Shown here piece after piece: positions 8,122 to 64,000 of a stretch of 64,000 nucleotides of DNA (its first letter is position 1; each line of letters starts with the position of its first letter). The translations under genes and the position numbers were made by a program. The notes below the pieces were generated by a model, which searched no databases, was not told the DNA's origin, and worked only from the letters and a program-made list of their open reading frames with translations. The DNA comes from Vicinamibacteria bacterium (lineage in GTDB: Bacteria > Acidobacteriota > Vicinamibacteria > Marinacidobacterales > Marinacidobacteraceae), in NCBI GenBank assembly GCA_964291235.2, contig OZ219816.1, positions 1,696,001 to 1,760,000 of the forward strand. The letters run 5' to 3'.

Positions 8122-8131
8122 ATTCGTCCTC

Positions 8132-13234: not shown

Positions 13235-13305
13235 GAGAGGCCTCTGGAACTCCGCGGGAAATGTGCCGGAAGACAACATCCGACAGGGTGGCGGGGACGC
13301 GATGA

Positions 13306-13967: not shown

Positions 13968-14007
13968 GAATGGCGCGGCCGTTCTCTCTCCCTCGAAAGA
14001 TCCAGCC

Positions 14008-14313: not shown

Positions 14314-14399
14314 ACGGCGCGCCGGCTCTCGGGCCAGGAGCGCGTTCGCAGCCGGCGCTCCTGCGCACCACTCTCGTTTGGGCCGCCGGGCCGAGGAGG

Positions 14400-14451
14400 A
14401 GGAGCGCCAGCCTCCGGCTAGCATCGCCGAGCGAAGTGAGGCGGAACTCCC
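14400..14451. repeat. REP-like element, left copy (inverted partner at 16508-16559)
   Basis: AGGAGCGCCAGCCTCCGGCTAGCATCGC...GCGGAACTCCC versus reverse complement of 16508-16559 AGGAGCGCCGGCCTCCGGCCGGCATCGC...GCGAAACTCCC. Confidence 0.65.
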
Positions 14452-14681
14452 GGACTCGGTCAGCCTCGACCGCGCCAACCCCAACGGGGACGGCGCGACG
14501 CTCATACCTGCGTGAGCGACGCCAGTCTGAATCCTGGGCCGGCCCGGGCGCGCCGAGATGGTTGGAGGAGGTCCGGCCCGAGGCGGATTACCGGTCTCAT
14601 CCCCAATAGAAACCAAGATCCCCAATAGTCGTTGGGGTCGGGTGGGGTTTTCGTTAGACTTCGGCACCGGAGGATCCAGAT

Positions 14682-40659: not shown

Positions 40660-41970
40660 TCAGGCGGTCAGGACTCCGACAAGGCGCTCCAGAGCTTCCA
40701 CACAAAACGCGGAGGTCACGGCTTCGGAGCCGTGTCCGATCTGCCCGACGGCGCCCCATTTCAGCGTCTGGTCGCCGAACGCCAGAAACTCCGGCCAACT
40801 GCCGTCCTCGCGTTGTGAACTCAGGAGCCGCTCCACCTGGCGTTTCACGCCAATGCTCTTGAGGCTTCCGACGCCATCGAGCGCCGACACTGCCTGGGCG
40901 GTCTGAAGGATGTTGCCGAATTCCCCGTTCTCGTCGCGCAACGCCAGAATGCGGTCCGCGAGTATCGGCCGTAGTCGAGCCAGAGCAGGCCGCGCGCGAA
41001 CCATGGCGCGGACGGTCGCATAGTAGATCGCGACCGTGTCGGGATACCACTTGGATGAGCCCTCGACCTTGCCTTCGGTGATCAGAGCCTCCAGCCACCT
41101 TTGGGCGTCCCTGGTTTCGGGGCAGGCGCCAAGATAGGCGATGACATTCGCATTGACTACGGGATCCGCTTCTATCCGGAACGGCGAAACGACATCGGGT
41201 TCGTCCTCGGCCAGGACCCAGGTCAGGAAACGGCCCCGCTCATCGCGATTCGCCAGCAGTGCCGGAATGTTCCTCCCCAAGAGGATCCAGGGATGCGTCC
41301 CCAAGACCTGTGAGCAGAGGGTGGTGCTGTCGAGATCCTGGGGAAGGTGGCGGTAATACCGCCACAAACCGGGATACTCGATGGTGTTCGTAAGGTGCGC
41401 CCTGGTAGCGTCGCACATGGCCCTGGCCCGCGCTTCGTGGCAACTCTCCAGAGCCAGTACGCAAAGAGCCGAAATGAACGGCGGCCTTTCGAAGTGCCGT
41501 GGAATGTTGGGGTCGGCGACGTTGAACCGGATGCAGTGCCAAGCGCCATTTTCGTCGAGGGTGGATTCCAGAAACGCGAGACCGCGGCGGATGCTCTTCC
41601 GAGCCGATCGGGCGAGGGTTGCGGAAGTGGCGCCGCTCTTCCCGGCGCGCGGGCGCTCGGGGGTCGGCGGTCGAAGGGGCGGTGCGGGGTCGTAGAGCGT
41701 CTTCTTGAGAAACGCGAGTGATGCGGCGCCGGTCCGCGCCTCCTTTCGTTCGGACTGGCTGAGTGTGGCACGCGGCGGAAGCACCAGGTGGGTCGTGGAA
41801 TAGGTCTCTTCGTGCACGTGAATCTGGTGGCCTTCGGCCAGCTTCACGCCGAGTTCCTCTTCGATCGTGGCTTTGGGTTTCGCGAGCAGGCGTTCGCGAA
41901 AGTCGTTGTCCTCGCCGGCTCGCGATACGAGGGAGTCGGCGACGGCATTGAGTCCCTTCCTTGATGTCAC
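40660..41970 (-). CDS. NHLP leader-like domain fused to a prenyltransferase/squalene-cyclase-repeat (class II terpene cyclase-like) domain
   Basis: N-term RAGEDNDFRERLLAKPKATIEEELGV...IHVHEE...HLVLPP (NHLP); C-term RRGLAFL..DENGAW, LWRYY...PQDLDSTT, DPVVNANV, QREDGSWP, GSEAVTSAFCVEAL. Confidence 0.82.
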   Translation of the reverse strand: MTSRKGLNAVADSLVSRAGEDNDFRERLLAKPKATIEEELGVKLAEGHQIHVHEETYSTTHLVLPPRATLSQSERKEARTGAASLAFLKKTLYDPAPPLRPPTPERPRAGKSGATSATLARSARKSIRRGLAFLESTLDENGAWHCIRFNVADPNIPRHFERPPFISALCVLALESCHEARARAMCDATRAHLTNTIEYPGLWRYYRHLPQDLDSTTLCSQVLGTHPWILLGRNIPALLANRDERGRFLTWVLAEDEPDVVSPFRIEADPVVNANVIAYLGACPETRDAQRWLEALITEGKVEGSSKWYPDTVAIYYATVRAMVRARPALARLRPILADRILALRDENGEFGNILQTAQAVSALDGVGSLKSIGVKRQVERLLSSQREDGSWPEFLAFGDQTLKWGAVGQIGHGSEAVTSAFCVEALERLVGVLTA

Positions 41971-47700: not shown

Positions 47701-48975
47701 CTAACGCCCAAGGCCCTCGGACATCTGGGCGTAACTGGTGAGCGGGACCGCGCACATCCGACTCAAGTCTGCCTGTTCGACGACGGGCTGGTTCAGTAGT
47801 TCGATCATTGCGTCGAACTTGTGGAGTGCGCCGCAACCAGTCACGTCGGGGTCCGCTGCCTTGCGGTATTGCGGCCATGCGGCGTCGCGGGCGTGGCGCC
47901 AGAACGCGCTGTCGTACCCGGAGCCACAGGAATAGTGCCAACCGACGAACAGGCCGTAGCAGAGCATGTTGCTGACAAGAAACCGATTGACGACAAGCGC
48001 ATCTTGCTCAAGGTTCTCTACCGGGCGGTTGAGACGAATCTGGAGCACCATCCCGATTTGAAACTGGGCGGATACGATTGCCGTTGCTTCGAGCGGCTCC
48101 ATGAACGCCGCTGCGTTGCCTATCCGGGCTACCGCGCCATCGTACATCTTGCGGTGGACAAAATTGGGAAACGAAATGACGGCGCGCTGCTCGAACTCCG
48201 TTACGCCGTCGGTCTGGAGGAACGCGTCGAAATCCGACTCGACGTCAGCGAGGCCGGATACCTCGCGGTTGAAGATGTACCCGTAGGACGTGTGTACGGT
48301 AAGAGGAATAACGAAGATCCAACCGTGTGGACGCGCAACCGCACGGGTATAGGTGTGCTCCAGAACGGGCACATCCTGCTCGGCGTTGACAACTGCCGGA
48401 CCGCGGCGGATAACGGCGGTATCGGTGGGGATGAAAGGAATGTGGATGTGCCGGTCGGGATCGAGTTCCCCAGGAAACCCGCGGGCATCGAAGACCAGGT
48501 CGTAACGTTCAGGCGCCCGATCCTCGAATTCCACGTGCGCCCCGCCGTCAACGCTGGAGATGTTGAGCACTTTCGCGTCGATGTGGCGTGCGCGCGTGTT
48601 TTCCTGCAGCAGCTCCGACATGACGTCGGCGGATAGATGGTAGGCGTAGGACACCTGTTGCGGGGTGAAGTGGTGGATGAAATCCCGACCGCGCCGACCC
48701 CATCCCTCGAATGCAACACCGTACTTGCGAGTACCTTTCAGACGTATCTGGACGGTCTCCTGGGGCAGATCCGTCAATTGCTGCAGATGCTGAACGAGGC
48801 TCGGCCAACTGCCTTCACCCACTCCGATGACCGGGATGCGCGAGTCATAGATGTGGTGTAGCTCGTGGTCTTTGTCGGGGTGGAGACGCGTTACGGTTGC
48901 GGCCGCCAAAGACCCTGCGGTTCCTCGCCCGACGACCGCGATCTTCCGGAGAGATTCGCTGCCTGCTTGTACCAC
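47701..48975 (-). CDS. srpI: Flavin-dependent tryptophan halogenase-like enzyme, SrpI-type peptidyl brominase
   Basis: GRGTAG FAD motif, IGVGEG, RKYGVAFEGW (catalytic Lys region), GWIFVIPL, GNAAAFMEPLEATAI; clustered with an LCCCW NHLP precursor as in described sponge srp clusters. Confidence 0.85.
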   Translation of the reverse strand: MVQAGSESLRKIAVVGRGTAGSLAAATVTRLHPDKDHELHHIYDSRIPVIGVGEGSWPSLVQHLQQLTDLPQETVQIRLKGTRKYGVAFEGWGRRGRDFIHHFTPQQVSYAYHLSADVMSELLQENTRARHIDAKVLNISSVDGGAHVEFEDRAPERYDLVFDARGFPGELDPDRHIHIPFIPTDTAVIRRGPAVVNAEQDVPVLEHTYTRAVARPHGWIFVIPLTVHTSYGYIFNREVSGLADVESDFDAFLQTDGVTEFEQRAVISFPNFVHRKMYDGAVARIGNAAAFMEPLEATAIVSAQFQIGMVLQIRLNRPVENLEQDALVVNRFLVSNMLCYGLFVGWHYSCGSGYDSAFWRHARDAAWPQYRKAADPDVTGCGALHKFDAMIELLNQPVVEQADLSRMCAVPLTSYAQMSEGLGR

Positions 48976-49121
48976 CCTATGTGACTTCCACAGATACCGG
49001 CCGATTATCCCTACTCCCAGGCTGGAACCCGCTCTTCCCGCGGGTCGCGGCGGCCGGGGGAGCCAGGCAACGCCCAGTCCGTCTGCCTCTCCATCCCTCC
49101 GCTTCCGATAGCGAATGCTGT

Positions 49122-49345
49122 ATATCGAGCACCAGAACCTAGGTTTACCTGACTGAGGAACAGCGCCGGCGGATTGACACCCTGACGGAGGCGGAGGGAA
49201 TCACCTTGGCCGAGGTCGTCCGCGGAGCGCTTGACGACTACTTCAAGCGGCAGTCCGCCGACGTGGAGGCGGCGCTTTCCGCGACCTTCGGAGCGGCGCC
49301 GGATGCATCGGTGCCCGGTCGGGAGGAGTGCGATCGTGGCGGACG
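49122..49345 (+). pseudogene. Decayed RHH/CopG-type antitoxin (vapB)
   Basis: (I)SSTRT*VYLTEEQRRRIDTLTEAEGITLAEVVRGALDDY...ALSATFGAAP; in-frame TAG at 49140-49142 and no ATG. Confidence 0.72.
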
Positions 49346-49465
49346 TGCTGGTGGACACCGACGTCTTCCTCGATCACCTGCGCGGAGCCCGGCCACTGCG
49401 GACGGAGGGCCGCCGGTTGCACTACTCCGTCATCACTCGCCCTGAGCTGTTCTCTGGAACTCGCG
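49336..49465 (+). pseudogene. N-terminal half of a VapC PIN toxin
   Basis: GTG start: MADVLVDTDVFLDHLRGARPL...YSVITRPELFSG, then loses similarity. Confidence 0.75.
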
Positions 49466-49625
49466 GGGTTCCGGAGGCTGAGGCCTTACCCAGCACTCGG
49501 ACAGAAGAAGTCCGCAAGAACAGCGACCCTAAGACCCCCGGTCAGAAGCCGGGGTCATTCCAAGCGCTGTGAGTGCGGTTCGGATCGCTCCGCATCTTCC
49601 CCGGCCAGTCGCCAGCTACCGAGGT

Positions 49626-49877
49626 TTACCAGCAGCAGCAAAGGCCAGCCGAAATCGCTTCGAGTTGCTCCTCAGTGATGTTCGGGTCCGGCGGCAACGC
49701 GAGATGCACCGTCTGCATGTCGCTCTCGTGGACCTTGATGGTCATCGAATCGGGAATCGAAATGCCCAATTCCCCACTAATCGCGGCCTTTGGGTCAGCG
49801 AGCAGTTGACGCCTGAAGTTCGCGTCCACCGCAGATTTCCCAACGACATGCTGCAACATCTCATTGCCGTTTCTCAT
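49626..49877 (-). CDS. srpE: NHLP-leader (proteusin) RiPP precursor, core LCCCW (SrpE-type)
   Basis: AAGGAGG RBS; DANFRRQLLADPKAAI...KVHESD..TVHLALPP...TEEQLEAISAG|LCCCW. Confidence 0.92.
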   Translation of the reverse strand: MRNGNEMLQHVVGKSAVDANFRRQLLADPKAAISGELGISIPDSMTIKVHESDMQTVHLALPPDPNITEEQLEAISAGLCCCW

Positions 49878-50073
49878 GGCAATTCCTCCTTGGTGATGGC
49901 TGGCTACCCGGCCAGCAATGCCACAGGACTGTAACGTGGACATTGGGCAGGGTCAAGTCATTGGGGTCCGAGATGTTGCGGTGTTGCGGTGTTTTGGTGT
50001 TGCGGTACTGGGGATTGGACCTTCCCCGGCTCCGGGCGAGCGGTGGCGCGCCTCGGAAATCGCGCGATGGCCG

Positions 50074-50315
50074 CTATTCGCCGGCGGCGCGCCGGGCGGC
50101 GATAGCTTCGAGCGACTTCGCGATGTCCCCGGCGCCGAGGTAGCGCCGGCCTCGTTCAGCAGACCCAGGATCTGGCGGCGGAGCGCCGCGATCCGGGCGG
50201 TGTTCTCGGCGCCGTAGCGCTCCAGCCCGGAATCCACCGCCTCGGTCCAGCGGGCCACCGTTTCCGCCGGCATGTAGCGGATTTCCGGACAATCGGCAAG
50301 TTGCCTGGTAGGCAC
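50074..50315 (-). pseudogene. Internally deleted remnant of an amidohydrolase 3' end (paralog of 52728-54140)
   Basis: PEIRYMPAETVARWTEAVDSGLERYGAENTARIAALRRQIL..LNEA joined by a frameshift to RYLGAGDIAKSLEAIAARRAAGE*. Confidence 0.85.
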
Positions 50316-50492
50316 TCTGCCGCTATCGCATGCGCATCCTGTGGCCCCTCATCCCACCGCGCGTTGGCCTGGGGCCGCGTGCCGACGTGCAGGCCGGCGC
50401 CCTCCTTGCTCTGCTGGCCTCGTTCCAAGTTGCGACATCCCCCCGTTCGCCCCAGGCGTTCCAGACCGGAGGTCCTGCGCCACGCCACCCGG

Positions 50493-51362
50493 CTACCCCG
50501 GCCGGGTGCCGGAAAGGAAGTGGTAGGTGAAGAGACCCTCCTTCAGACCCCGGTCGTAGGCGACGGTCGCCTCCATGAACTCCCGGGACGCCTGGTTCGG
50601 CAGACTATCGGGGTCGATCACGAGTGTGAGCATCAGCCAGTTCTTCCGGAGGGTGTCCGTGTGCCGCGCCACCTCGGTGGAGAGGTCGCGGCCCGTCACC
50701 GCTGCGAACCCCGCTTCCTCGAGAGTTGCGAGCACTTCCCGCCACGGCTCCAGGGGGGGCATACGCCAGCCGCGCCGCGCAATGGCGTGAATCGCTTCCT
50801 GGGATTCGGAGACCGGCGCACCGCTCCGGAGTCCTTCGAGGGCCTGCCATTTTCCCCCCGGCTTCAGCACCCGGTAGATGCCCTGGAGGTAGGCGAGCTT
50901 GTCCGGCGCATAGCAGAAGGACTCATGGTTCAACACCGCATCGAACGTCCCGTCCAAGAACGGCAGATCCATGAAGTCGCCGGAGCGGAAATCGACCAGG
51001 TGGCCGACCCCGCGCTCCTCGGCGTGTTTCGTGGCCACTTCGATGTGGGGCTCGCAGATGGTCAGTCCGGTGACGTGGACGCCGTGCGCCTCCGCGAGCG
51101 TGATTGCCGTCCCGCCGACCCCGCAGCCGGCATCCAGCACCCGCCGCCCCGGGCAGAGGTCGCATCCGTCCACGAGCGTGCGGTTGGCGCGGACCAGCGC
51201 CTCGCGATCGTTCGTCGTCTCCGGTCCCCAAAGGCCGAAGTGGGTCGCCAGCAGGTCTCCGCCGAAGTCCTCCATCTGTTTTGTCAACGCGGCATAGTGC
51301 TCGGAAACCGAGCTGCCCCATTCCGGATTGCGCTGCGGCGGGCGTGGGTCGCGGTCCATCAC
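50493..51362 (-). CDS. Class I SAM methyltransferase (sterol/tocopherol-MT-like)
   Basis: HFGLW, VLDAGCGVGG, VTGLTI, GDFMDLPFLDGTFDAV, ESFCY, RVLKPGG. Confidence 0.9.
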   Translation of the reverse strand: MMDRDPRPPQRNPEWGSSVSEHYAALTKQMEDFGGDLLATHFGLWGPETTNDREALVRANRTLVDGCDLCPGRRVLDAGCGVGGTAITLAEAHGVHVTGLTICEPHIEVATKHAEERGVGHLVDFRSGDFMDLPFLDGTFDAVLNHESFCYAPDKLAYLQGIYRVLKPGGKWQALEGLRSGAPVSESQEAIHAIARRGWRMPPLEPWREVLATLEEAGFAAVTGRDLSTEVARHTDTLRKNWLMLTLVIDPDSLPNQASREFMEATVAYDRGLKEGLFTYHFLSGTRPG

Positions 51363-52690
51363 CCCAGCGACCTCAGCGACGAATCCGGGTTGTCAGCGAA
51401 CGGCAGGTCGTTCCCGCGGAAGACCCGTTTCGGATCGAACTCGCGCTTCCACTGCCGCCCCCGTTCGAAGTTCTCGCCATAGTGCTCCTTCCATTCGGCG
51501 CGTCCGTAGCCCACCCGGCCGGACAGATAGCTCTTTCCTCCGAGTTCGACGAGAGCCCGATCGACCTCCCGCAGCCTTTCCACCAACCCGGTTGCCTCCT
51601 CGTAGGTTCGCGCCACGCAGAGGACCGAGTACGAGGTCATCCGTTCCACGTCCGGACGCATGAAGAGTGGGGCGTCGTCCCTCTTCATTCTGATCGGGTA
51701 CATCCCGATCCAGTTCCAGGGAGATGGCGGCACCCACTCCGGATCCAGCCACGGCTGGGCAATCAGCTTGGGAAGGGTCTCCCAGGGCAGGAACCAGTCG
51801 CGCCACGGGTGGTAGTTGGTCCGGCTGAACCCCCACTTCGGATACATCCCGGCGCGTCCCACCTCGTCGGTGTCTCTGGCCCAGATGATCTTGTCGTGCC
51901 CCAACCCGTCGAGGGCCTTCCCATCGTACTGCTCCCCGTCGTACTCGGAGCCCACGGTCAGGATGATCTCCCGTTCCCGGACCCGGGTTTGCGCCCGCAC
52001 GTGATGAAACCGGTCCTCGGCGACCAGCCGCCGGAAGTCGCTCTCGAAGCGTCCGAAATCACGGTAGAGAAGCTCGTGCAGACGGATCCGCTTGCCGGCC
52101 CGGCGCAGCCGGATCCAGGCTTCGGTGATCACTCCAAACTGCCCCTGGCCACCCCGGACGGCATCGAACAGATCCGCGTTGTCGGTGCGTGAGCACCGCA
52201 GCCGTTCGCCGGTTCCGGTCACCACCTCGAGCTGCTCGACCTGGCCGGCCTGCACTCCGTGGCGGTGCGAGGTGGTCCCGAATCCCCCCGCGGCCAACGT
52301 TCCTCCCACGGTGGCCTCGGCGATGTCCACCAGTACCCGGGGCAGCCGCCCGGTTCCTTCCAGCGCGTCCACGACATCGTCCCACAGTGCGCCGCCCTGG
52401 GCTCGGATCAGCTCCTTCCCCAGCGGTTCGACGCGTTTGAGCCCGGTCGCGTCGAGGACCAGACCTCCCTCCGTGAGGCTCCCGCCACTTTGGGAATGGC
52501 CCGCTCCCCGAACGGCCACCGGGACTCCGTCCCGCCCGGCCCGGCGGACGACGCTCGCTACTTCCGCCGCGCTTTCCGGGGTCGCCACCGCCGCCGGCAT
52601 CCGCCGGATGATTCCCCCGAAGTCGGACGCCCGCGCCTCCCGTTCCTTCGCATTCACGCTCAGGCCGGGGAAGCCATCCGGTTCCAACAT
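51359..52690 (-). CDS. FAD-linked oxidoreductase (VAO/PCMH family, cytokinin-dehydrogenase-like)
   Basis: VRGAGHS (covalent-FAD His), TVGGTLAAGG, GGQGQFGVIT, HPW, KREFDPKRVF; overlaps the methyltransferase start. Confidence 0.88.
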   Translation of the reverse strand: MLEPDGFPGLSVNAKEREARASDFGGIIRRMPAAVATPESAAEVASVVRRAGRDGVPVAVRGAGHSQSGGSLTEGGLVLDATGLKRVEPLGKELIRAQGGALWDDVVDALEGTGRLPRVLVDIAEATVGGTLAAGGFGTTSHRHGVQAGQVEQLEVVTGTGERLRCSRTDNADLFDAVRGGQGQFGVITEAWIRLRRAGKRIRLHELLYRDFGRFESDFRRLVAEDRFHHVRAQTRVREREIILTVGSEYDGEQYDGKALDGLGHDKIIWARDTDEVGRAGMYPKWGFSRTNYHPWRDWFLPWETLPKLIAQPWLDPEWVPPSPWNWIGMYPIRMKRDDAPLFMRPDVERMTSYSVLCVARTYEEATGLVERLREVDRALVELGGKSYLSGRVGYGRAEWKEHYGENFERGRQWKREFDPKRVFRGNDLPFADNPDSSLRSLG

Positions 52691-52727
52691 CCTCGATCCG
52701 GAGGCCAGGCGACGATGCGGGCCGGAC

Positions 52728-54140
52728 CTATTCTCCGGCGGCGCGCCGGGCGGCTATGGCTTCAAGTGCGTCAGCGATGTCCGCGGCGGTCAGGTAGCGG
52801 CCGCCGGCGATCACCGCCGCGATTTCACGGGTGGCTCCGATGTTGTCGAGCGGATTCGATTCGAGGAGAACCAGGTCGGCCCGGTTCCCCGCCGCGATCA
52901 CCCCGAAGTCCGCGGCGATGCGGCCGCCGCGGGCGAGGTGTTCGGCGACGACCCGGGTGCCGGACTCCAGCACCTCGTACGGGGTCATTCCGGCCTCGAC
53001 GTAGGACAGCGCCTCGCGGTGGATCGAGAAACCGGGAACGCTGAAGATCTGCGGCGAGTCGGTGCCGAGCAGGATGAGCGCGTCCGCCTCGTTCAGCGCC
53101 GCCAGAATCTCGCGGCGGAGCGCCGCGATCCGCTCCGTGTTTTCCGCGCCGTAGCGTTCAAGGCCAGCATCCACCGCCTCGGTCCAGCGTGACACGGTCT
53201 CCGACGGCATATACCGGATCTCCGGGCGCTCGGTCCTGAGATCGGAGGACGGCCGGGTGGGGAGGATGCCCGATTCCCAGAGAACGATGGTGGGCACCAC
53301 TCCCGCTCCGCTTGCGCGAAACGCATCGATCACCCCGGGCAACCGGTCCCGGTCCACGAGTTCCGAGAGCCCGGCGATCCCGCGCAGCGCCTCCATTTCT
53401 CCCCGGTCTTCCTCCGGAATCAGCGCCTCCACGAAGTTGTCGAGGTGATCCACGGTGTCCTGCCCGGCTTCAAGGGCGGCAAGGAGACCGACCTCGTCCG
53501 CGACGTGCCCCGCAAACGGAATCCCGAGCTCCCGCGCCGTCGCCGCCAGCGCCGCGTAGGTCTCGGGCGCGAACCCCTCGTGCACCTTGAGCAGATCGAA
53601 GCCGGCGTCCGCGTACTCCCGGACCAGACGCACGGCCTCGTCCCCTGTCTCGATGCGTCCGCTCATCGAGGGACTGCCCACGATGAGGCGGGGCCCGATC
53701 AACTCTCCCGCCGCGATCCGGTCGCGAAGCGCGAGCTGGGTTGCATGTCCCTGCATGCCGCGCACGGTGGTGACGCCGTTTGCGACGTAGAGCATCAGCA
53801 CGTCCTCGATGAGCACGGAAGGGCTGTTCGCGCCGGGCAGGTGGCCGTGCATTTCGGCGAGCCCGGGGATCAGAAACCGTCCCTCCCCGGAAATGGCCAC
53901 CGTCTCCGCTCCCAGGGTCACCTCGGCCGCGGGCAACACCGCGGCGATGCGGCCGTCCTCGACGATCACGGTGTGGTCGGGCAGAACGCGGTCACTGTCC
54001 ATCGGAAGCACGGTGGCCGAGACGATGGCGAGGTCCGCACCGGGTACCGTCGGCTCGGGAGCGCAGGCCAGGCTCCCAAACAGCAGCAGCACCGCGCCCG
54101 GAAGGCGCCGGAACCTGGAATGAGGTCTGTCTTGCATCAT
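52728..54140 (-). CDS. Amidohydrolase-family lipoprotein
   Basis: Lipobox SLAC; IPGLAEMHGH, GVTTVR, LKVH, AGHV, DHLD, LLGTDSP, ADLVLL..NPL. Confidence 0.9.
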   Translation of the reverse strand: MMQDRPHSRFRRLPGAVLLLFGSLACAPEPTVPGADLAIVSATVLPMDSDRVLPDHTVIVEDGRIAAVLPAAEVTLGAETVAISGEGRFLIPGLAEMHGHLPGANSPSVLIEDVLMLYVANGVTTVRGMQGHATQLALRDRIAAGELIGPRLIVGSPSMSGRIETGDEAVRLVREYADAGFDLLKVHEGFAPETYAALAATARELGIPFAGHVADEVGLLAALEAGQDTVDHLDNFVEALIPEEDRGEMEALRGIAGLSELVDRDRLPGVIDAFRASGAGVVPTIVLWESGILPTRPSSDLRTERPEIRYMPSETVSRWTEAVDAGLERYGAENTERIAALRREILAALNEADALILLGTDSPQIFSVPGFSIHREALSYVEAGMTPYEVLESGTRVVAEHLARGGRIAADFGVIAAGNRADLVLLESNPLDNIGATREIAAVIAGGRYLTAADIADALEAIAARRAAGE

Positions 54141-54218
54141 TGGCGCCTCTCCCGGGGAAGATCCGCGGGGATTATGTGGGCGGGGCGGGTGGGAAACTAG
54201 GCGGACACCAGACACCCC

Positions 54219-55274
54219 ATGGCACTCAAGATCGAGATCTGGGGCCCGCCGCTCGGACCGCTGACCGGCGGGAACCTCTACGACCGAATCCTGGCCGAGA
54301 CCCTCCGGGGCCAGGGCCACGAGGTGAGGGTGCGTGAGTTCGCCGGGGACGGGCAGGAGGCCCGAAAGGATGGAAGCTGGGCCGACGTGGTCCTGCAGGA
54401 CGAACTCCTGCACCGGGAGTTTCTTCACCGAAACACCGCCTGGAGGGGCCGCCGGCCGCGGATCATCGCGCTCGTCCACCACCCGATGAGTTCCGAGCCC
54501 GAGCGGGGCGAGGCGGAGCGCCGCCGGCTTCGGAAGGAGGAGCGCGCCTATCTGCGGACGGTGGACGCGGTGCTCGCCCCGAGCCGGGCCAGCGCCACGG
54601 CGGCGCGGCGGCTCGCCGGCAGACCGGTACCGTTCGCCGTCGCGCCGCCGGGACGGGACCGGCTGGCGGGGGCGGAACTGCCTCCCCTGCCCGGCCCCGA
54701 CGAGGTTCGCGCCCGGGCCGTCGGACCGCTCCGCGCCGCTTTCGTCGGGAACCTGATTCCCCGGAAGCGCCTTCTCGAACTCCTCGAGGCGGTCGCCGCC
54801 GTTCCCGAATGGACACTGGCGGTCGCCGGCCGGGAGGACATCGACCGGGAATACGCCACCCGCGCGCACCACCGGGCCAGCGCTTCCGATCTCCGGGGTC
54901 GGGTAACGTTCCACGGGGCGCTCGGCCCGGACCGTTTGGCGACGCTGCTTCGGGCAAGCTGCCTGCTCGCGGTGCCCTCGACCCACGAGGGGTTCGGCAT
55001 CGTCTATCTCGAGGGTTTTGCGTTTGGGTTGCCCGCTCTCGCCGCCGCCTCCGGGGGCGCGACGGAAATCGTGTCTGACGGAGAGACCGGCTGGCTGATC
55101 CGGGCGTCGGATTTCATCCGCGCCACCGAGCGGATCGCCGACTGCCTGCGACTCCTCGCCGCCGATCGCGACCAACTGACCACCATGGCGCTCCGGGCCG
55201 CAGACCGTCACCGCCGCCATCCCACCTGGCGGGAGAGCGCAACCGCGGCGGACCGGCTCCTCACGTTGCCGTAG
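54219..55274 (+). CDS. Glycosyltransferase family 4
   Basis: TGGNLYD, FVGNLIPRK, PSTHEGFGIVYLEGFAFGLP, GGATEIVSDGETG. Confidence 0.9.
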   Translation: MALKIEIWGPPLGPLTGGNLYDRILAETLRGQGHEVRVREFAGDGQEARKDGSWADVVLQDELLHREFLHRNTAWRGRRPRIIALVHHPMSSEPERGEAERRRLRKEERAYLRTVDAVLAPSRASATAARRLAGRPVPFAVAPPGRDRLAGAELPPLPGPDEVRARAVGPLRAAFVGNLIPRKRLLELLEAVAAVPEWTLAVAGREDIDREYATRAHHRASASDLRGRVTFHGALGPDRLATLLRASCLLAVPSTHEGFGIVYLEGFAFGLPALAAASGGATEIVSDGETGWLIRASDFIRATERIADCLRLLAADRDQLTTMALRAADRHRRHPTWRESATAADRLLTLP

Positions 55275-55358
55275 TCCTCCCCCGTCGCCGAGCCGCGAAT
55301 CGGGCCACCTTTGGCGGACAGGGGCCCCAAGACATCACTCAAGCGGAAGTCAAACTCT

Positions 55359-55387
55359 TTGACAGTGATTACAGCTCATGCTACAAA
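55359..55387 (+). promoter_or_regulatory. Near-consensus sigma70 promoter of precursor 2
   Basis: TTGACA-17 bp-TACAAA with TGn extended -10, about 55 bp upstream of the start. Confidence 0.65.
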
Positions 55388-55441
55388 TCGCACAACTGAA
55401 TGAGCTGTCCGTTGCAGGGCACAAGAAACAAGGAGGAAACC

Positions 55442-55714
55442 ATGAATCCCGAAACGATCATGCAGAGTGCTGAGGACATGCGCCGGCGTCTCACCGAGAA
55501 GGCCGTGCAGGATCCCGAGTTCCGCGCGAGTCTCGTATCCGATCCGAAGGGCGTCCTTCAGGCCGAGTACGGCATCCAGTTGCCGGACGAGGTCAGCATC
55601 GAGGTACACGAATCCGACGACAACACCGTCCATTGGGCGCTGCCGTCTTCGGCGACACTGAGCGAGAAGCAGCTCGACCAGATCGCCGCCGGCCTCTGCT
55701 GCTGCGGAATCTGA
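55442..55714 (+). CDS. NHLP-leader RiPP precursor 2, core LCCCGI
   Basis: AAGGAGG RBS; EKAVQDPEFRASLVSDPKGVL...EVHESD.NTVHWALP...LSEKQLDQIAAG|LCCCGI. Confidence 0.92.
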   Translation: MNPETIMQSAEDMRRRLTEKAVQDPEFRASLVSDPKGVLQAEYGIQLPDEVSIEVHESDDNTVHWALPSSATLSEKQLDQIAAGLCCCGI

Positions 55715-55864
55715 AGCAACCGGCCCCCAGGGCCGCTTCCGTCCTCGCGTCCGCAGACCGCTGACCTGAGTTCGGAGCGCCAGCGCGGCCCCTTGCGCCG
55801 CGTTCCGGCGGGCGCTCTGTAAGCACGGAGCGTCCGCTTTGGCGTTTCCCCCGCGTCGCCTTAT

Positions 55865-57001
55865 TCAGACAGGCTGCTGGCCGGGGGCGACCCCGCCCGC
55901 CGGCTGGGCGTAGCGAATCAGCCAGAAGACGTACGCCTTGACCTGCTCGACCCGCTCCGGGGTCAGCGCCACCTTGATGTGGTGGATACCTCGGATCAGC
56001 ACGTACATACCGGCCTTGCCGAACAGCGGTTCCAGACCACACGACGTTTCCTCGAGCGCCGACAGCTTCTCCGGAATGCCCAGGCCGTCCTGCCCGAGCC
56101 CGTCCAGCAGGGCCTTCCAGGGTTCGATGTCCTTCACCCACTCACCCTGACTGGGGAAAAAACTCAACCCGAGCGTTCGTCCCAGGCCGTCCGCCCGGAC
56201 GTCCAGATGCACGCCCAGAGTGCCGAACGCCTCGCGCCGCTCCATGCGACTCGCGACCGAAGCGACCAGATCCCGATTGCCAGCCCAGTCCGCACGTTCC
56301 AGGAACGCGAGGAGTTGGGAGGCGTTCGAGAACCCCGTTACGGCAAGGCGAACCGCCCGCGTGCGTGAAAGGAAGGCCCCGGCGCCCCGAATCGCGGCCT
56401 CCGGCGCCATCGCGGCGTACACCCGTTCGGCTTCGCGCCGTTCCGTCTCGTCGGGCTCCCAACCCAGCGCCGCGACCAGGGCGTCCATCACGACGCCGAG
56501 GTCTCGGCGCGCCGCTTCGGAACCGCCGCCGGCCAGGACGCCCTCCGCCGGATACAGGAAGACACCCGGGGCCGGCGCCACCTCCCCTGGCGTCCGGGGC
56601 ACGTCGTACTCGAGCAGCATCTTCCTGCCGATGATCCGCCGGAGCGCGGAGTCCGCCGGCCTCGTTCCGTCGAGCAGCCGGGCGATGGCCCGCGTGATCG
56701 GATCGGCGCCCGCGCGCCGCGCCTCGGCCGTGTAGTACTCCTCGGAAAGGCTGTCGCCGAGGAGCGACAGGCCGAGATCCGCCACTGGCCGGGGTTCGAG
56801 AAGCGGCAACTCGAACCCGAACGGAAAGGCGGCCAGCGTGACGGGGAGGCCCCGCACCCGTTCCCACGCCCGCCGCCACTCGGCCTCGCCGATCAGCAGC
56901 GGCGACAGCCGCCGCCCGAACGGCGCCAGCAGCGCTTCAAGGGAGGCAGCCTCGCGCGGCAACACCCTCTCGGTCGGGGGCCAGTCCTCCAGGAAACTCA
57001 T
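55865..57001 (-). CDS. Conserved hypothetical RiPP-associated protein (paralog of 37193-38305), cluster 2
   Basis: FPFGFELPL, ADLGLSL, GRKMLLEYD, RAVRLAVTGF, RGIHHIKV, VKAYVF; directly downstream of YcaO as in cluster 1. Confidence 0.8.
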   Translation of the reverse strand: MSFLEDWPPTERVLPREAASLEALLAPFGRRLSPLLIGEAEWRRAWERVRGLPVTLAAFPFGFELPLLEPRPVADLGLSLLGDSLSEEYYTAEARRAGADPITRAIARLLDGTRPADSALRRIIGRKMLLEYDVPRTPGEVAPAPGVFLYPAEGVLAGGGSEAARRDLGVVMDALVAALGWEPDETERREAERVYAAMAPEAAIRGAGAFLSRTRAVRLAVTGFSNASQLLAFLERADWAGNRDLVASVASRMERREAFGTLGVHLDVRADGLGRTLGLSFFPSQGEWVKDIEPWKALLDGLGQDGLGIPEKLSALEETSCGLEPLFGKAGMYVLIRGIHHIKVALTPERVEQVKAYVFWLIRYAQPAGGVAPGQQPV

Positions 57002-57019
57002 GAATTCGACCCCAACAGC

Positions 57020-59356
57020 CTAGGCAATCACGGGGGCCGGGTTGAGTTCGGATTCGGAGAGCGGGCTCGGGAGCCGCCCCATCGCGACCGGCACATCGAA
57101 CAGCCGGCCGGGCGCGAAACGTTCCCAGAAGTGCCGCATTCCCGGCACGATCACCCTTGCCACCGGCATTCCGATGTCGGGGCGGGTCTGGTCGAGGACC
57201 AGGAACTCCATCCCGCGGGTCTCCACCAGCGCCCGGCAGCGCTCGACGTCTTCGCGCACGTCCGTCGTGTCCGGGACGGGATAGTCGTCCCTGCCGCAGA
57301 GAGACGATTCCGGCGCCGGCGCCAGGTAGGGGTTTTCTTCCACCGTGGCCTCCTCCCACCAGCGAAGCGACATCGGATCCATGAGGTCGCGCCCAGCGCC
57401 GCCCCCCTCCACCGCCTGGATCCAGCTCAGGCACTGGTTCAACTCACACACCGCGCGGAGCACCGCCACCTGCGGATCGGGATGCGCCCCCGCACCGTAG
57501 AGGATGGTTTCCGCGTCCCCGCCGGTGCGCCGCGAAACCGCGACGAAGACCGGAATTCCCAGGTCGCTCGTAACGTCAAGCACCCACATTTCGCGTCCCC
57601 GCCGCCGGTAATAGTCGGGCGCGGAAACCAGGTACTCGTCGTCGAAGCTCCCCAGGTCCACGCCGGGCGCCGGGAGCCGGTTGTACCACCAGATCGCGAA
57701 GGCGTCGCGTTCGACCAGCTCCAGGAACCCCTGCAGGATGGCCTCCTCCAGGGTGTTCCCGGCGGCGCAGCCATTGGAATCGGCGACGGGTTCCCAAGCC
57801 TCGCGTTCCTCGGACGGCAGGCCGTACAACATGGACGTCGGCAGGTACCGGTGGCGGCTCTGGGTGAGCGACCACACCGGCGACCAGCTCGCTTCCCGCT
57901 CCGGATCGAAGCGGGGCGGGATCACGTTGTAGGGATGGCCCTGGGCGTTGATCCGATCTCGCTCGTCCAACTGCCGGTCGCTGAAGAGTTGGACGTCGTT
58001 CGGGTGGATCGCCTCGCCGCCGCCCGCCCGTTCGAAGTCGCGGTAACACTTCCGGACCCGGATCTCGTCCCCGTGGAACGCGCCCGAATACCGTTCGAGC
58101 GCTTCACAAAGCGCGCTCGCCTCGGACTGCGCGCGCGTCTCGCCCTTGCCCGCGCTCTTGCTGCGCAGGCTGCGGGTCAGCGAACTCAGCGTTTTCGTGC
58201 GGAGGGCCTGATTGCTGCCGGCCCAGTACACGTGAAGCCACGGGTCCGCTTCCTCCGACGTGCGTTTGACCCAGGTCACGACCCCGCTGACCGGGCTCAC
58301 CAGGTGACGGTAGCGGGCGAGGGTCGCCTCCGGGGCGACACCGCGCACCCCGCCGCTGTTGCGAATCCGCTTCGGGCTGGAAGCGAGCCGGACCGGGACG
58401 GCCGGCCGGTCGGTGCGATAGAGCGCCTCATCGCCGCAGGCAGCGCACTGGGGCCGGCGCCTGACCGGGTGACGCTCATTCTTCAAATGGGTGAGGTCCA
58501 GAGAAAACGCGTACTCGTGGAGCGGCGCCAGCTCCCCGAACACCAGCCACTTGGCTATTTCCGCCGCGGCGAAGCCCAGGACCGAATCCCGGACTCCGGG
58601 TTCCGCTGCGGCCGGGTGGAAGACGGAGTCCGCGTTGCGATTGCGCAGGAAATTGTGGACTTCCTGGTGCCCGCGCAGGCGGTGGGCGAGACAGCGCCAA
58701 CAGGGTCCCTGATCCGCCGGCCGGAAAATCGGCCCGAACAGCGGAGACATTCCGCGGGGGCGGAGCAGCATCCACGGAGTTCCCGACTCGAGCTGCCGCC
58801 GATTGAGGTCGGCGTGCTGCTCATCAAGATAGTCGGCGCAGACGACCACCGTAAGAACAACGCCGGCGGTGCCTGACGGGACGCCCATCCGCTCCAGGCG
58901 CCTCGCGAGTCCGCCTTCGTCACCGTGCACCCGGACCCCGGCGGCGCCGAGTCGCTGCTCCGCCCACCGGGGGGAGGCTCCCAGTGAGGACCAGTAGGCG
59001 GCGCGCTCCCGGGCCATGGCGTGTTCGCCCGAAACCACGTATCCCCTGGAGGCAAGCGCGACGAGCGCCTCGAAGACGTCGGAAGCCGCATGGACGCCGG
59101 CGAGCGCGGCGGCCAGTTCCTCACGCGAGCGGCGTCCGTCGAGCAACGGCAGGAGGTCGGCGTAGAGGGCGCCCCCGAGCAAGGTGTTGAAGGTTTCGGA
59201 AACCAGCAGCAGCTGTCCGCCCCCAACGGGACGGAACTCCAGGTGGGGCGCCAGCGCCGGCCTGTCCACGACGCCGGCGTCGGCAGCGGTGATCCTCTTC
59301 AGGATGCCGCGGCCCGGATTCGCCCGTGGGGCACCCTCCCGGTCCCAGTCCGACAT
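57020..59356 (-). CDS. Fused E1-like/YcaO cyclodehydratase, cluster 2
   Basis: Same motifs as 38315-40657 (GPCWRCL, RRPQCAACG, SAGKG, DSNGCAAG, ELVERDA, LNPAPVIA); start ATG 59356. Confidence 0.95.
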   Translation of the reverse strand: MSDWDREGAPRANPGRGILKRITAADAGVVDRPALAPHLEFRPVGGGQLLLVSETFNTLLGGALYADLLPLLDGRRSREELAAALAGVHAASDVFEALVALASRGYVVSGEHAMARERAAYWSSLGASPRWAEQRLGAAGVRVHGDEGGLARRLERMGVPSGTAGVVLTVVVCADYLDEQHADLNRRQLESGTPWMLLRPRGMSPLFGPIFRPADQGPCWRCLAHRLRGHQEVHNFLRNRNADSVFHPAAAEPGVRDSVLGFAAAEIAKWLVFGELAPLHEYAFSLDLTHLKNERHPVRRRPQCAACGDEALYRTDRPAVPVRLASSPKRIRNSGGVRGVAPEATLARYRHLVSPVSGVVTWVKRTSEEADPWLHVYWAGSNQALRTKTLSSLTRSLRSKSAGKGETRAQSEASALCEALERYSGAFHGDEIRVRKCYRDFERAGGGEAIHPNDVQLFSDRQLDERDRINAQGHPYNVIPPRFDPEREASWSPVWSLTQSRHRYLPTSMLYGLPSEEREAWEPVADSNGCAAGNTLEEAILQGFLELVERDAFAIWWYNRLPAPGVDLGSFDDEYLVSAPDYYRRRGREMWVLDVTSDLGIPVFVAVSRRTGGDAETILYGAGAHPDPQVAVLRAVCELNQCLSWIQAVEGGGAGRDLMDPMSLRWWEEATVEENPYLAPAPESSLCGRDDYPVPDTTDVREDVERCRALVETRGMEFLVLDQTRPDIGMPVARVIVPGMRHFWERFAPGRLFDVPVAMGRLPSPLSESELNPAPVIA

Positions 59357-59378
59357 CCGAACGGCCTCCGGGTTGCGG

Positions 59379-60257
59379 TCAGCCGTCTTCCGGCTTCTTC
59401 GCACAGTAGCGCCGAAGCTCGAAGAAGCCCTTGGACCACACTTCGTGAAGCAGGCGCATGCGCTGGATCAGCCGGCCCAGCTCCGGGGTGTTCACGCCGG
59501 ACAGCCAGTACAGCGAGAGTTGCCGGTGCCGGTGCCCGATGAGCCGGATGTTCTCCGCATCCTTGCCGCCAAACCCCTCGAACTCGACCAGTTCGAAGCC
59601 GGCCCCGGCCAGCAGGCGGGTGTAGGTGGACTGGCGCTCAAGCGGAGACACCATCCACGGCTCGCAGAGCGGCAGGATGTGCTGCTCGTACTCCTCGCCG
59701 CTCAAATCGTCGCGAGCCATCCAGTCCATGGCCGCGATCCGGCCTCCCGGGGAGAGGATCCGGAACACCTCGCGAAGAAACGTTCCCCGGTCGCCGTAGT
59801 GGCAGGCGCTTTCGATATTCACTACGGCATCAATGGAGCCGTCGTCGAACGGAAGGTGTTCCGAGCAGTCGGCGTATCCAAAGCGCACCCGGTCTTCCAC
59901 GCCGGCATCCGCCGCCTTGCGGTTGGCGATCTCGAGTTGCTTCCGGTTCACGTTGACACCGGTAACGGCGCAGCCGTGTTTGTTCGCCAGGTAGATCGCG
60001 GTGCCCCCGACTCCACAGCCGGCGTCCACGACATGGTGGTCGGCTCCGATCCCGGCGGGGGCGGCAATCACATCCACCATCCGTTCCACCGCCCGCTGCA
60101 AACCGGCGGACTCGGCCAGCCGGTTCAGGTCCTCGGGAACGTCCTCCGGCTCGAAGAGCCCGAGATGAATGTGGTCGGGATTCCAGCTCGCGGCGTAACC
60201 CGCGGTGAGTTCGTCGTAGTGGAGCTCGACGAGGCGTGAGTGTTCCGAGAGCGCCAA
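59379..60257 (-). CDS. Class I SAM methyltransferase (sterol/tocopherol-MT-like), cluster 2
   Basis: HIHLGLF, VDAGCGVGGT, VTGVNV, LPFDDGSIDAVVNIESACHY, RILSPGG. Confidence 0.9.
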   Translation of the reverse strand: MALSEHSRLVELHYDELTAGYAASWNPDHIHLGLFEPEDVPEDLNRLAESAGLQRAVERMVDVIAAPAGIGADHHVVDAGCGVGGTAIYLANKHGCAVTGVNVNRKQLEIANRKAADAGVEDRVRFGYADCSEHLPFDDGSIDAVVNIESACHYGDRGTFLREVFRILSPGGRIAAMDWMARDDLSGEEYEQHILPLCEPWMVSPLERQSTYTRLLAGAGFELVEFEGFGGKDAENIRLIGHRHRQLSLYWLSGVNTPELGRLIQRMRLLHEVWSKGFFELRRYCAKKPEDG

Positions 60258-62888: not shown

Positions 62889-64000
62889 TCACGCCAACTG
62901 CCGGCGAACCAGGTCCTGGAACGGCCCCTCGGTTGCCACGAGGACCGCATAGGACCCCTCCTGAACGACCTTCCCGGCGCGCATCACGTAGATGCGGTCC
63001 GCTTCGCGGAGGGTGGACAGCCGGTGGGCGATGACGATCCGCGTCGAGGTGAGACGCGCGAGGTTGTCCATGACCGTCGCCTGCGAGTCGTTGTCGAGCC
63101 AGTTGGTTGCTTCGTCGAGAAGGAGGATTCGCGGATTGCCGATCAGCGCGTGCGCGATCGTGATGCGCTGGCTTTCGCCGCCGGAGGTGACGCTCCCGCC
63201 GGCCCCGACGGGGGTCAGCATCCCCATGGGCATCGCCGCGATCTCGCGGTCCACCGCCGCGATCCGGGCGGCCCGCCAGGCATCCTCGGCGGTGGCTTCT
63301 TCGTGGTCTCCCGCGATGTTGTCCCAAAGGTCCTGCGGATGGAGTTGGACCTGCTGGGGAACGGTGCCGAGCTTCCGGCGCACCTGCTTGACGTTGAGAT
63401 GCCGGAGATCGCGTCCGTCGTAGTACACCGCTCCCGACGACGGCTGGTCCAGGCCGAGCGCCAGGCGAAAGAGCGTGCTCTTGCCGGCGCCGGACTCGCC
63501 GGCGATCGCCACGAACTCGCCGGCGCGAGCGCGAATGGATACATCGTCCAGAATCGCCGGGCCGTCCTCGTCGTAACGGAAACTCACGTGGTCGAACGCG
63601 ATCTCGCCGCCCAGAACTTCTACGGCTTCCCCACCCGCGCTCATCTCCGGGGGCTCGGCCAGGAACGGCTCGACACGCTGGAGCGCCGGCAAGATGCCGG
63701 CAAGCGCGCTGAATGATGTCCCGAGACGCACTACCGACATCTGGAACAGCAGGAGCAGGGTGTAAACGACGAGAAAATCTCCCACCGCGATCGGCCCGCG
63801 GTCCGGGAGAGTCGCGCCGAGCAGGAGGAGCGCCGCCGCGAGCAGCGGCAGCGCGGCGCAGAACGCCTTCAGATGGGCCTCGAGGGAGCCGAGTTCCAGT
63901 TCGGCCTTCTTCTGGTCCCGGTAGTCGCGAGCCCACATCGCGAACGCCGACCCCTCGGCGCCGTCCACCCGCAGCTTCGAGATGCCTCCCACCAGTTGGA
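62889..64000 (-). CDS. NHLP-type export ABC transporter permease/ATPase, 3' part (runs off window end)
   Basis: Paralog of 41967-44906: GISKLRV.GAEGSAF, GESGAGKST, SGGESQR, DEATN, IAHRLST. Confidence 0.92.
   Translation of the reverse strand, partial: QLVGGISKLRVDGAEGSAFAMWARDYRDQKKAELELGSLEAHLKAFCAALPLLAAALLLLGATLPDRGPIAVGDFLVVYTLLLLFQMSVVRLGTSFSALAGILPALQRVEPFLAEPPEMSAGGEAVEVLGGEIAFDHVSFRYDEDGPAILDDVSIRARAGEFVAIAGESGAGKSTLFRLALGLDQPSSGAVYYDGRDLRHLNVKQVRRKLGTVPQQVQLHPQDLWDNIAGDHEEATAEDAWRAARIAAVDREIAAMPMGMLTPVGAGGSVTSGGESQRITIAHALIGNPRILLLDEATNWLDNDSQATVMDNLARLTSTRIVIAHRLSTLREADRIYVMRAGKVVQEGSYAVLVATEGPFQDLVRRQLA

Follow-up and report, generated by a model that had tools for sequence, protein, structure and literature searches.

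A 64,000-nucleotide stretch of the genome of a Vicinamibacteria bacterium (assembly GCA_964291235.2, contig OZ219816.1, contig positions 1,696,001-1,760,000, which is contig G000:C2 in our numbering; G+C content about 68%), referred to below as the window, contains two NHLP-type precursor genes, one ending in AG and the core LCCCW and the other ending in AAG and the core LCCCGI (Table 1). The LCCCW core is that of the srp clusters of sponge-derived proteusins, ribosomally made peptides that are modified after translation (RiPPs; precursor SrpE, YcaO enzyme SrpC, brominase SrpI), which were reportedly founded in a paper by Nguyen et al. in JACS in 2021. We found that the LCCCGI gene is a real proteusin precursor in a bromine-free member of the LCCC-X family. 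We are fairly confident that it is functional as a second NHLP precursor, and that its gene set is a complete paralogue, without a halogenase, of the srp-type pathway located 5.5 kb away in the same genome. We call the gene set of the LCCCW precursor cluster 1 and that of the LCCCGI precursor cluster 2.

A second NHLP precursor and its cluster

The initial annotation had described a second precursor with a Trp-less core, and this is read directly in the sequence. The protein scores above the cut-offs of the NHLP leader models TIGR03793 (67.4 bits, cut-off 50.9) and PF02979 (34.7 bits, cut-off 27.2), and it has a Gly-Gly-type cleavage motif ahead of a short Cys-rich core, with residues A83, G84 and L85 invariant in the precursor alignment. 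Its leader contains an L-x4-L motif (LSEKQL). The two precursors of the window are 45% identical (37/82), with the largest divergence at the N-terminal end, and the homologue P0001, which has the same LCCCGI core, is 92% identical to the window precursor. Genome-wide there are only three NHLP matches: the two precursors and an NHLP-fused protein of cluster 1. Some public LCCCGI homologues carry an NCBI annotation as NHLP precursors, and many precursor homologues are tagged with the precomputed Pfam label PF27793.1.

The genes of cluster 2 are all open and full-length against relatives, and those opposite the precursor form a tightly packed minus-strand row (gaps of 18-71 nt, or overlaps). The row includes a fused cyclodehydratase, YcaO2, with the LynD/TruD-type architecture of an E1-like/RRE N-terminal part and a YcaO domain. 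YcaO2 scores 330.7 bits with PF02624, 267.2 with TIGR03604 (cut-off 219.25) and 138.2 with TIGR03882 (cut-off 36.9), and it matches LynD (E = 2.8e-169; LynD residues 9-773 on YcaO2 residues 35-776) and TruD (E = 5.9e-165) over its full length. It shares 61% identity with its cluster 1 counterpart (YcaO1), which is our basis for calling it SrpC-like, with YcaO1 as a stand-in for the published SrpC. Further along the row, the 830-residue fusion protein matches alkane 1-monooxygenase (8f6t, E = 4.4e-55 over residues 47-363) and GlnE (3k7d, E = 1.1e-09), and homologues of this fusion are present in many related loci. The last gene in the window encodes a subunit of an ATP-binding cassette (ABC) exporter, ABC2. 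The ABC2 gene runs on beyond the window end, where region L087 (G000:C2:1759001-1775000) has genes for a 936-aa ABC protein, a 740-aa Peptidase_C39 ABC protein and a 295-aa HlyD-like protein, followed by unrelated genes (CDP-alcohol phosphatidyltransferase, TonB-dependent receptor and others). Cluster 2 is therefore adjoined by an NHLP-type exporter pair with a C39 peptidase.

Directly upstream of the LCCCW precursor are genes for a second S-adenosylmethionine (SAM) methyltransferase, MT', and a flavin adenine dinucleotide (FAD)-linked oxidase, which are probably accessory genes of the cluster 2 type. The other genes between the two precursors encode an amidohydrolase and a GT4 glycosyltransferase. 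A 393-aa frame without a family on the plus strand (50301-51482) is the opposite-strand shadow of the MT' gene; shadow open frames of this kind are a typical artefact of high G+C DNA.

Table 1. Features of the two precursor clusters in the window (positions count from the first nucleotide of the window).
Feature	Position	Strand	Details
NHLP-fused protein, 436 aa (cluster 1)	40660-41970	-	N-terminal NHLP leader domain
Halogenase (cluster 1)	47701-48975		PF04820
LCCCW precursor (cluster 1)	49626-49880	-	ends in AG, LCCCW
MT', second SAM methyltransferase	50493-51362	-	Pfam and NCBIfam matches
FAD-linked oxidase	51359-52690	-	Pfam and NCBIfam matches; cytokinin-dehydrogenase-like C-terminal part
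Promoter-like site	55359-55387	+	TTGACA 55359-55364; 17-nt spacer with TG at 55379-55380; TACAAA 55382-55387
Ribosome-binding site AGGAGG	55431-55436	+	5 nt ahead of ATG 55442
LCCCGI precursor (NHLP/proteusin, 90 aa)	55442-55714	+	inside open reading frame 55400-55714; start ATG 55442
Leader	55442-55693	+	ends in QIAAG
LCCCGI core codons	55694-55711	+
Stop codon	55712-55714	+
Structured GC-rich spacer	55715-55864	.	150 nt, between convergent genes
PT-fold protein, 378 aa	55865-57001	-	fold of ABBA (PT-barrel) prenyltransferases; no family assigned by Pfam or NCBIfam
YcaO2, fused E1-like/RRE/YcaO cyclodehydratase	57020-59404	-	778 aa from ATG 59356; 794 aa from GTG 59404
MT2, class I SAM methyltransferase	59379-60257	-	PF08241, PF13649; nearest solved structure MitM (E = 1.1e-31)
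Fusion protein, 830 aa	60329-62821	-	AlkB-like membrane di-iron hydroxylase (N-terminal, PF00487) and GlnE-like nucleotidyltransferase (C-terminal, PF03710)
ABC2, NHLP-type ABC exporter subunit	62889-64000	-	cut by window end; TIGR03797 445.7 bits on fragment

LCCC-X precursors in other genomes

With one genome per species, a scan using the single precursor found no relative, and an alignment-based scan did find relatives, encoded at 310 loci. Our comparative counts are for the best 80 of these 310 loci, which reduce to 79 distinct loci, all in metagenome-assembled genomes (MAGs) whose titles name Nitrospirales, Alpha- and Gammaproteobacteria, Acidobacteriota, Binatia, Gemmatimonadota and others. 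They contain 91 precursors: 16 LCCCG[IVL], 16 [LM][SC]CCx, 28 RCCC (one of them RCCCCW), 16 LCCCW, 9 MCCCGI, 5 WCCCGx and one other. Precursors ending in LCCCGI, LCCCGV or LCCCGL are present in MAGs of several phyla. A profile search of a collection of 5.8 billion proteins returned 1099 proteins at E <= 1e-10, and among the best 120 of these are LCCCGI (64), LCCCL (14), LSCCL (6), LCCCGV (6), LCCCW (6), LCCCG (5), WCCCGN (4) and scattered other ends; both this sample and that of the loci were ranked by a profile dominated by LCCCGI leaders and are not a census. By a word-index search, eight close precursors were found (six LCCCGI, one LSCCL and one LCCCL). LCCCGI is a common core, not a rare one. 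A search against representatives at 50% identity merges core types, and yielded further LCCC-X ends (T, S, I and FFW).

The view taken in the initial annotation, of a constant tris-thiazoline unit with a variable C-terminal tail, is right about the Cys triplet, which is constant, and about the ends, which vary. The residue preceding the triplet also varies (L, M, W or R), and LSCC, LCGC and LCCG cores exist.

The nine MCCCGI precursors (in L027, L028, L033, L035, L036, L038 and L039, at about 10001-10262 on the plus strand, and in L029 and L046) form one clade by their leaders (9/9, support 99), and seven of them are about 2.4-3.6 kb from an LCCCW precursor. For the MCCCGI precursor of L033 there is no YcaO of its own in the 10 kb downstream, the sole YcaO found in these loci being upstream, on the LCCCW side; its neighbors encode a UbiA prenyltransferase, an MpaB/Lcp-like oxygenase, an MMPL transporter and a LolA-like protein. 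In the alphaproteobacterial locus L003 an MMPL/RND-type transporter gene (10409-12775, plus strand) directly follows an LCCCGI precursor, and the window cluster has none.

Core tails and tailoring genes

The initial annotation saw no halogenase in the visible part of cluster 2 and suggested that its product is not brominated. We found none among the proteins scanned from 50.3 to 64 kb, nor in region L087, which covers 16 kb past the window. The halogenase family PF04820 (Trp_halogenase) matches in only two places in the whole genome, the cluster 1 gene and a site on another contig (G000:C1:867460-868524, plus strand) that is remote from any NHLP gene. In the relatives, likewise, none of the 16 LCCCG[IVL] precursors has a halogenase gene within 10.5 kb (Table 2). 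The genome has a brominated-type and a bromine-free cluster 5.5 kb apart, and a YcaO, a PT-fold protein and an exporter are encoded in each.

Table 2. Precursors of each core type in the related loci with the named gene within 10.5 kb (window excluded; some absences come from loci cut at contig ends).
Core type	n	Halogenase	MT2	MT'	FAD oxidase	PT-fold gene
LCCCG[IVL]	16	0	13	12	11	13
[LM][SC]CCx	16	0	3	12	7	15
RCCC	28	0	7	9	0	25
MCCCGI	9	0	1	0	0
WCCCGx	5	2	5	5	0
LCCCW	16	6	2	2	0	16

Table 2 addresses the correlation of the tail with tailoring genes that the initial annotation proposed to look for. Both halogenase-positive WCCCGx cases are in loci that also contain LCCCW. The link of MT2 to the tail is not significant with phylogenetic control. 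These two WCCCGx loci, L026 and L045, are alphaproteobacterial and have a SrpI-like halogenase (7879-9135 and 8065-9321, respectively, both plus strand) between divergent LCCCW and WCCCGN/WCCCGQ precursors. The halogenase is on the same strand as the WCCCGx gene and nearer to it (1.4-1.6 kb) than to LCCCW (2.1 kb), which raises the question of whether the N-terminal core Trp of WCCCGx may be a halogenase target as well.

The NHLP-fused protein of cluster 1 has an NHLP leader domain in its N-terminal part (46.8 bits with TIGR03793, just short of the 50.9 cut-off) and a larger C-terminal part with a weak match to the C-terminal domain of squalene-hopene cyclases (24.4 bits, under the cut-off). 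Its homologues are found near 15 of the 16 LCCCW precursors and near none of the 16 LCCCG[IVL] precursors.

Phylogeny and origin of the Gly-Ile end

We built a quick maximum-likelihood tree from 56 YcaO proteins over 773 columns, rooted at the midpoint only. In it the YcaOs of LCCCW loci form one clade (16/16, SH-aLRT 98) nested in a grade of LSCCx, LCCCG[IVL], LCCCL and RCCC types. The LCCCG[IVL] type needs at least four forced changes, on the branches starred in this tree, and the hypothesis that this type forms one clade is rejected by an approximately unbiased (AU) test (p = 2.65e-07, delta lnL 135.9; 11 rows against 43, leaving out L044 as a long branch and L029 as a duplicate, with the group set by core label when the tree had already been seen). 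YcaO2 is sister, with support of 100, to the YcaO of L019, a Ca. Marinacidobacterium locus with core LCCCL that shares the amidohydrolase (87%) and GT4 (68%) neighbors with the window. A weakly resolved tree built from the leaders alone (100 rows, 78 columns) agrees: it places the window leader and P0001 (99) with the LCCCL/LSCCL leaders of L019 and P0003 (86), and a branch with support of 95 parts the window leader from a 57-row clade that holds the other 20 LCCCG[IVL] leaders. At the DNA level the window core ends in TGC GGA ATC TGA, against TGT CTC TGA in L019, the nearest relative.

Two claims of the initial annotation are not supported in the form given there. LCCCGI precursors do not appear as a sister family to LCCCW, because the LCCCW clade falls within the Trp-less types (under a midpoint root) and LCCCG[IVL] precursors do not form a single clade; nor does the core appear to swap Trp for Gly-Ile, since the window YcaO and leader group with LCCCL/LSCCL-type clusters and not with LCCCW. 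The trees suggest instead that aliphatic or Gly-aliphatic LCCC-X ends are the common state and that the Trp/brominase type is one derived clade, and that the Gly-Ile end in the window sits on an LCCCL-type lineage.

In the L019 cluster (5783-14523) the genes for the precursor, the PT-fold protein and the YcaO are intact, those for the exporters and MT2 are missing, and only short remnants are left of the fusion gene, the FAD oxidase gene and the MT' gene; it looks like a cluster in decay. Because it is reduced, the tail and gene changes may have run in either direction. We do not propose a joint gain of MT2 and the Gly-Ile tail: the three available contrasts are not significant, and L019 simply lost a block of genes.

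A conserved protein with a prenyltransferase fold

The gene whose end faces that of the precursor encodes a 378-aa protein that has a PT-barrel fold, according to an AlphaFold2 model made with a 40-row alignment (pLDDT 93.5, pTM 0.90). The model shows alternating helix pairs and strand pairs, as in the five alpha-alpha-beta-beta repeats of a PT barrel. The top Foldseek matches in the PDB are LimF, PagF, EpzP, DMATS1 and Orf2 (E-values of about 1e-5, TM-scores of 0.4-0.56). VIA-align superposes 306 residues on MpnD (Z = 17.5, root-mean-square deviation 4.4), and all 50 of the 50 rows listed are ABBA prenyltransferases. A protein-language-model look-up, which we treat as a lead only, placed prenyltransferase clusters at rank 12 (score 0.90, PF11991 in 75% of members). 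The family alignment has invariant columns E131, D133, R213, R218, H340 and Y357, which are candidate functional residues.

The protein has a paralogue in cluster 1 (38% identity) and 111 homologues, for which every source-given name is 'hypothetical protein'. Its gene is near most precursors of four core types (Table 2) and adjoins the YcaO gene in the loci mapped. Loci with RCCC cores often have two PT-fold paralogues (L030, L031, L050, L052-L054, L057, L058, L060, L066, L069, L076, L078 and others). We regard the fold of this conserved gene product as the most useful new lead from the window.

A shared fold alone shows no function. Prenylation is our preferred guess for the role of the protein, and a tentative one; we prefer it because of the recurring isoprenoid flavor of the neighboring genes. 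These encode the AlkB-like hydroxylase, methyltransferases that weakly resemble prenyl-diphosphate C-methyltransferases (other matches being better) and the cytokinin-dehydrogenase-like FAD oxidase; there are also the UbiA prenyltransferase and the MMPL/LolA-like export pair beside MCCCGI precursors, and MMPL beside one LCCCGI precursor. A predicted complex of the PT-fold protein with the precursor scored 0.12 (mark 0.32), which is evidence in neither direction.

Transcription signals and gene orientation

The initial annotation credited the precursor gene with a near-consensus TTGACA-17-TACAAA promoter and a strong ribosome-binding site. The hexamers and the spacer are as it described, and the label 'near-consensus' is slightly generous, the -35 box agreeing at 6/6 positions and the -10 box at only 4/6. 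We take the TG one base upstream of the -10 box to be an extended -10 element. In an alignment of five upstream regions (both window precursors and the Acidobacteria relatives L019, L073 and L074), TTGAC, the TA of the -10 box and AAGGAGG are invariant and TG is present in four of five; the promoter-like sites are 79-87 nt upstream of the start codon in all five. The pattern TTGAC-N15-TGNTA, which was taken post hoc from the site itself, has its single occurrence in the 64 kb at this site and occurs in 0/100 shuffles. We take the promoter to be likely real, and the ribosome-binding site is there as described.

The precursor gene also converges on the minus-strand YcaO operon, as the initial annotation stated, with 150 nt between its end and that of the PT-fold gene. 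This is no special feature of the window, however, but the norm in the family: where a YcaO gene is in view, the nearest one is convergent for 9/12 LCCCG[IVL], 12/13 [LM][SC]CCx, 13/21 RCCC and 15/15 LCCCW precursors. The RNA of 55712-55866 folds with -75.9 kcal/mol (z = -3.08; 0/200 shuffles are equally stable), so the spacer between the convergent genes may act as a terminator. A scan of 49000-57500 found no T-run terminator in the spacer, and Rfam had no match in the same interval.

Proposed pathway and alternatives

The evidence can be assembled into a pathway for cluster 2. The precursor would be transcribed from its own promoter, to judge by the sequence and its conservation. Its leader would be bound, through LSEKQL, by the RRE of the YcaO encoded opposite, as suggested by homology and by published NHLP/YcaO pairs, and the three Cys of the core would be converted to thiazolines. 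This conversion is very likely, in view of the homology to LynD and TruD, the published chemistry of SrpC on LCCCW and the Cys-rich core. Bromination would not take place, as the core lacks Trp and no halogenase gene belongs to the cluster. To judge by folds and families, the product is likely to be tailored further by the PT-fold protein, the AlkB-like hydroxylase, the FAD oxidase and one or two SAM methyltransferases. The C39-peptidase ABC exporter, going by its family, very likely cuts after AAG, and would export the six-residue product together with ABC2 and the HlyD-like protein.

A wider proposal, which we put forward only tentatively, is that the whole srp superfamily, the LCCCGI cluster included, makes lipidated peptides. 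The universally conserved PT-fold protein encoded next to the YcaO gene would be a divergent ABBA prenyltransferase that acts on the tris-thiazoline, and in the Gly-aliphatic members MT2, MT', the AlkB-like hydroxylase and the FAD oxidase would add methylation and oxidation. Selection would have produced the Gly-Ile/Val/Leu tail on more than one occasion, one of them on the LCCCL-type lineage of this genome. Such products would presumably be akin to N-prenylated, C-methylated linear cyanobactins, made on an NHLP leader with C39-ABC export. If prenylation is a missed step, as the comparative data hint, it would change the masses to seek in sponge extracts.

Several points weigh against these proposals. 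The link of MT2 to the tail consists of raw counts, with only three phylogenetically independent contrasts and no significance. The trees are quick IQ-TREE searches with a midpoint root only, and the losses in L019 mean that such clusters can decay. YcaO1 may be the enzyme that acts on the LCCCGI precursor instead of YcaO2, or both may act on it. No flavin mononucleotide (FMN) azoline oxidase was seen for cluster 2, and its rings may be thiazolines or thiazoles. A generic sigma-70 scan of 49000-57500 omits the LCCCGI promoter-like site, because its rule requires T at the last -10 position, which TACAAA does not have; the same scan does report TTGACC-17-TACAGT ahead of the LCCCW precursor. The public sequencing runs that contain the stretch are four DNA runs of one study, with no RNA run among them. 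For the PT-fold protein, there is no Pfam or NCBIfam match to a prenyltransferase sequence family (PF11991, PF11468, PF19156) up to E = 1, and a profile search of PDB sequences with its family gave chance-level matches to ATP synthase and no prenyltransferase. Aromatic residues are the usual acceptors of ABBA prenyltransferases, and LCCCGI has none.

These last points, with the caution that a fold alone shows no function, are also what favors the alternative that the product is a plain tris-thiazoline hexapeptide. The PT-fold protein would then have another task, as a scaffold, a carrier or an immunity protein, and the targets of the methyltransferases, the oxidase and the hydroxylase would be something other than this peptide. 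We consider this rather doubtful, though worth keeping in mind. It does not readily account for a fold match as long and uniform as that to the ABBA prenyltransferases, for invariant acidic, basic and aromatic columns in the family, for a gene that stays near most LCCCG[IVL], [LM][SC]CCx, RCCC and LCCCW precursors and next to the YcaO gene, or for neighbors that recall isoprenoid chemistry.

It is less probable still that there is one pathway with two substrates, in which the LCCCGI precursor is shared with the adjacent LCCCW cluster in one regulon and is cross-processed, and we think this unlikely. The arrangement would fit: the precursors are 5.5 kb apart, MT' and the FAD oxidase are directly upstream of LCCCW, and in nine related loci a second precursor (MCCCGI or WCCCGx) is found no more than about 4 kb from an LCCCW precursor, with the only YcaO seen on the LCCCW side. 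Cluster 2, however, has its own YcaO, PT-fold protein and exporters, and the two leaders differ most in an N-terminal stretch that we take to be the alpha-1 helix. That helix is used for specificity by a published NHLP/YcaO pair (PMC12455567; this and the other papers cited here and below are drawn on from excerpts). SrpI tolerates other proteusin leaders (PMC10286304), which would favor sharing, but it acts on a C-terminal Trp (PMC10286304), and LCCCGI has no Trp. Under the reading that we prefer, of two pathways each with its own precursor, the clusters look orthogonal, and, side by side with a YcaO, PT-fold protein and exporter each, they are a natural test bed for leader and enzyme specificity.

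That the LCCCGI precursor is a silent or decaying duplicate and is not made, as the losses and remnants in the syntenic relative L019 might suggest, is very improbable given that the window genes are open and full-length, that the promoter-like site and ribosome-binding site are intact, and that P0001 is an independent record with the same core.

Comparison with known systems

The closest known system is srp, whose clusters are defined by LCCCW, SrpC and SrpI (PMC10286304, PMC10858898, bioRxiv 10.1101/2023.06.09.544420): on LCCCW, SrpC forms three thiazolines, and the C-terminal Trp is then the residue that SrpI brominates (PMC10286304, PMC10858898). Of 343 precursors, 116 are beside a YcaO gene and only 66 beside a halogenase gene, and peptide clusters of the srp type rank with the most widespread and most highly transcribed ones in sponge microbiomes (bioRxiv 10.1101/2023.06.09.544420). 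Cluster 2 resembles srp in its NHLP leader (about 84 aa), its AG/GG cleavage site, its L-C-C-C core and its fused, SrpC-like YcaO, and it has the PT-fold protein and NHLP-type ABC exporters in common with LCCCW loci. By a strict definition it is not srp, since its core is not LCCCW but ends in Gly-Ile, and it has no SrpI-type brominase, having SAM methyltransferase(s) and an FAD oxidase instead. It also lacks the NHLP-fused 436-aa protein, and YcaO2 is outside the LCCCW clade. In the literature that we searched, srp peptides have been made heterologously only, with no natural product or role found, and we found no link between srp and a prenyltransferase.

The halogenase-free LCCC-X type has already been noticed in print, and cluster 2 is no new system. 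Sponge proteusin clusters described in 2025 have in common a precursor, a YcaO, two transporters and genes whose function is not known; their 'LCCC' motif is conserved and their final structures are diverse (PMC11832590), so the novelty that the initial annotation saw in an LCCC motif with a variable end was overstated. The 'LCCC' proteusin families from mesophotic-sponge MAGs in that paper match the cluster 2 type; in the excerpts, the extra genes are called 'genes of unknown function', and there is no phylogeny of core types. The string LCCCGI is not in the text or two supplementary files compared (figures are outside that comparison), and its sole match in our literature search is a paper on neuromuscular disease genetics, which we judged unrelated by its title; the founding srp paper, the supplements of the bioRxiv report or the figures may list it.

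Cyanobactin machinery is similar in that YcaO2 is a full-length homologue of LynD and TruD, that its neighbor has the PagF/LimF/DMATS fold, and that the predicted product is a short azoline peptide derived from Cys. It differs in that cluster 2 has an NHLP leader and C39-ABC export, not PatA/PatG proteases: no PatA/PatG-type subtilisin protease and no PatE-type precursor was found among the proteins scanned. Unlike the fold, the sequence of the PT-fold protein has no detectable likeness to cyanobactin prenyltransferases.

The Mpr proteusin pathway (MprE precursor, MprC YcaO, MprD FMN oxidase; PMC12455567, PMC10286304) has in common with cluster 2 the NHLP leaders, the RRE-bearing YcaO, the L-x4-L motif and the alpha-1 helix, and the last two govern recognition of the leader by the YcaO (PMC12455567). 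The pathways differ in the MprD-like azoline oxidase, which was not seen in cluster 2, and in their cores, with one very short core in cluster 2 against ten varied cores in Mpr. Set against these systems, the comparative data suggest that the published Trp/brominase type is one branch of a larger LCCC-X family.

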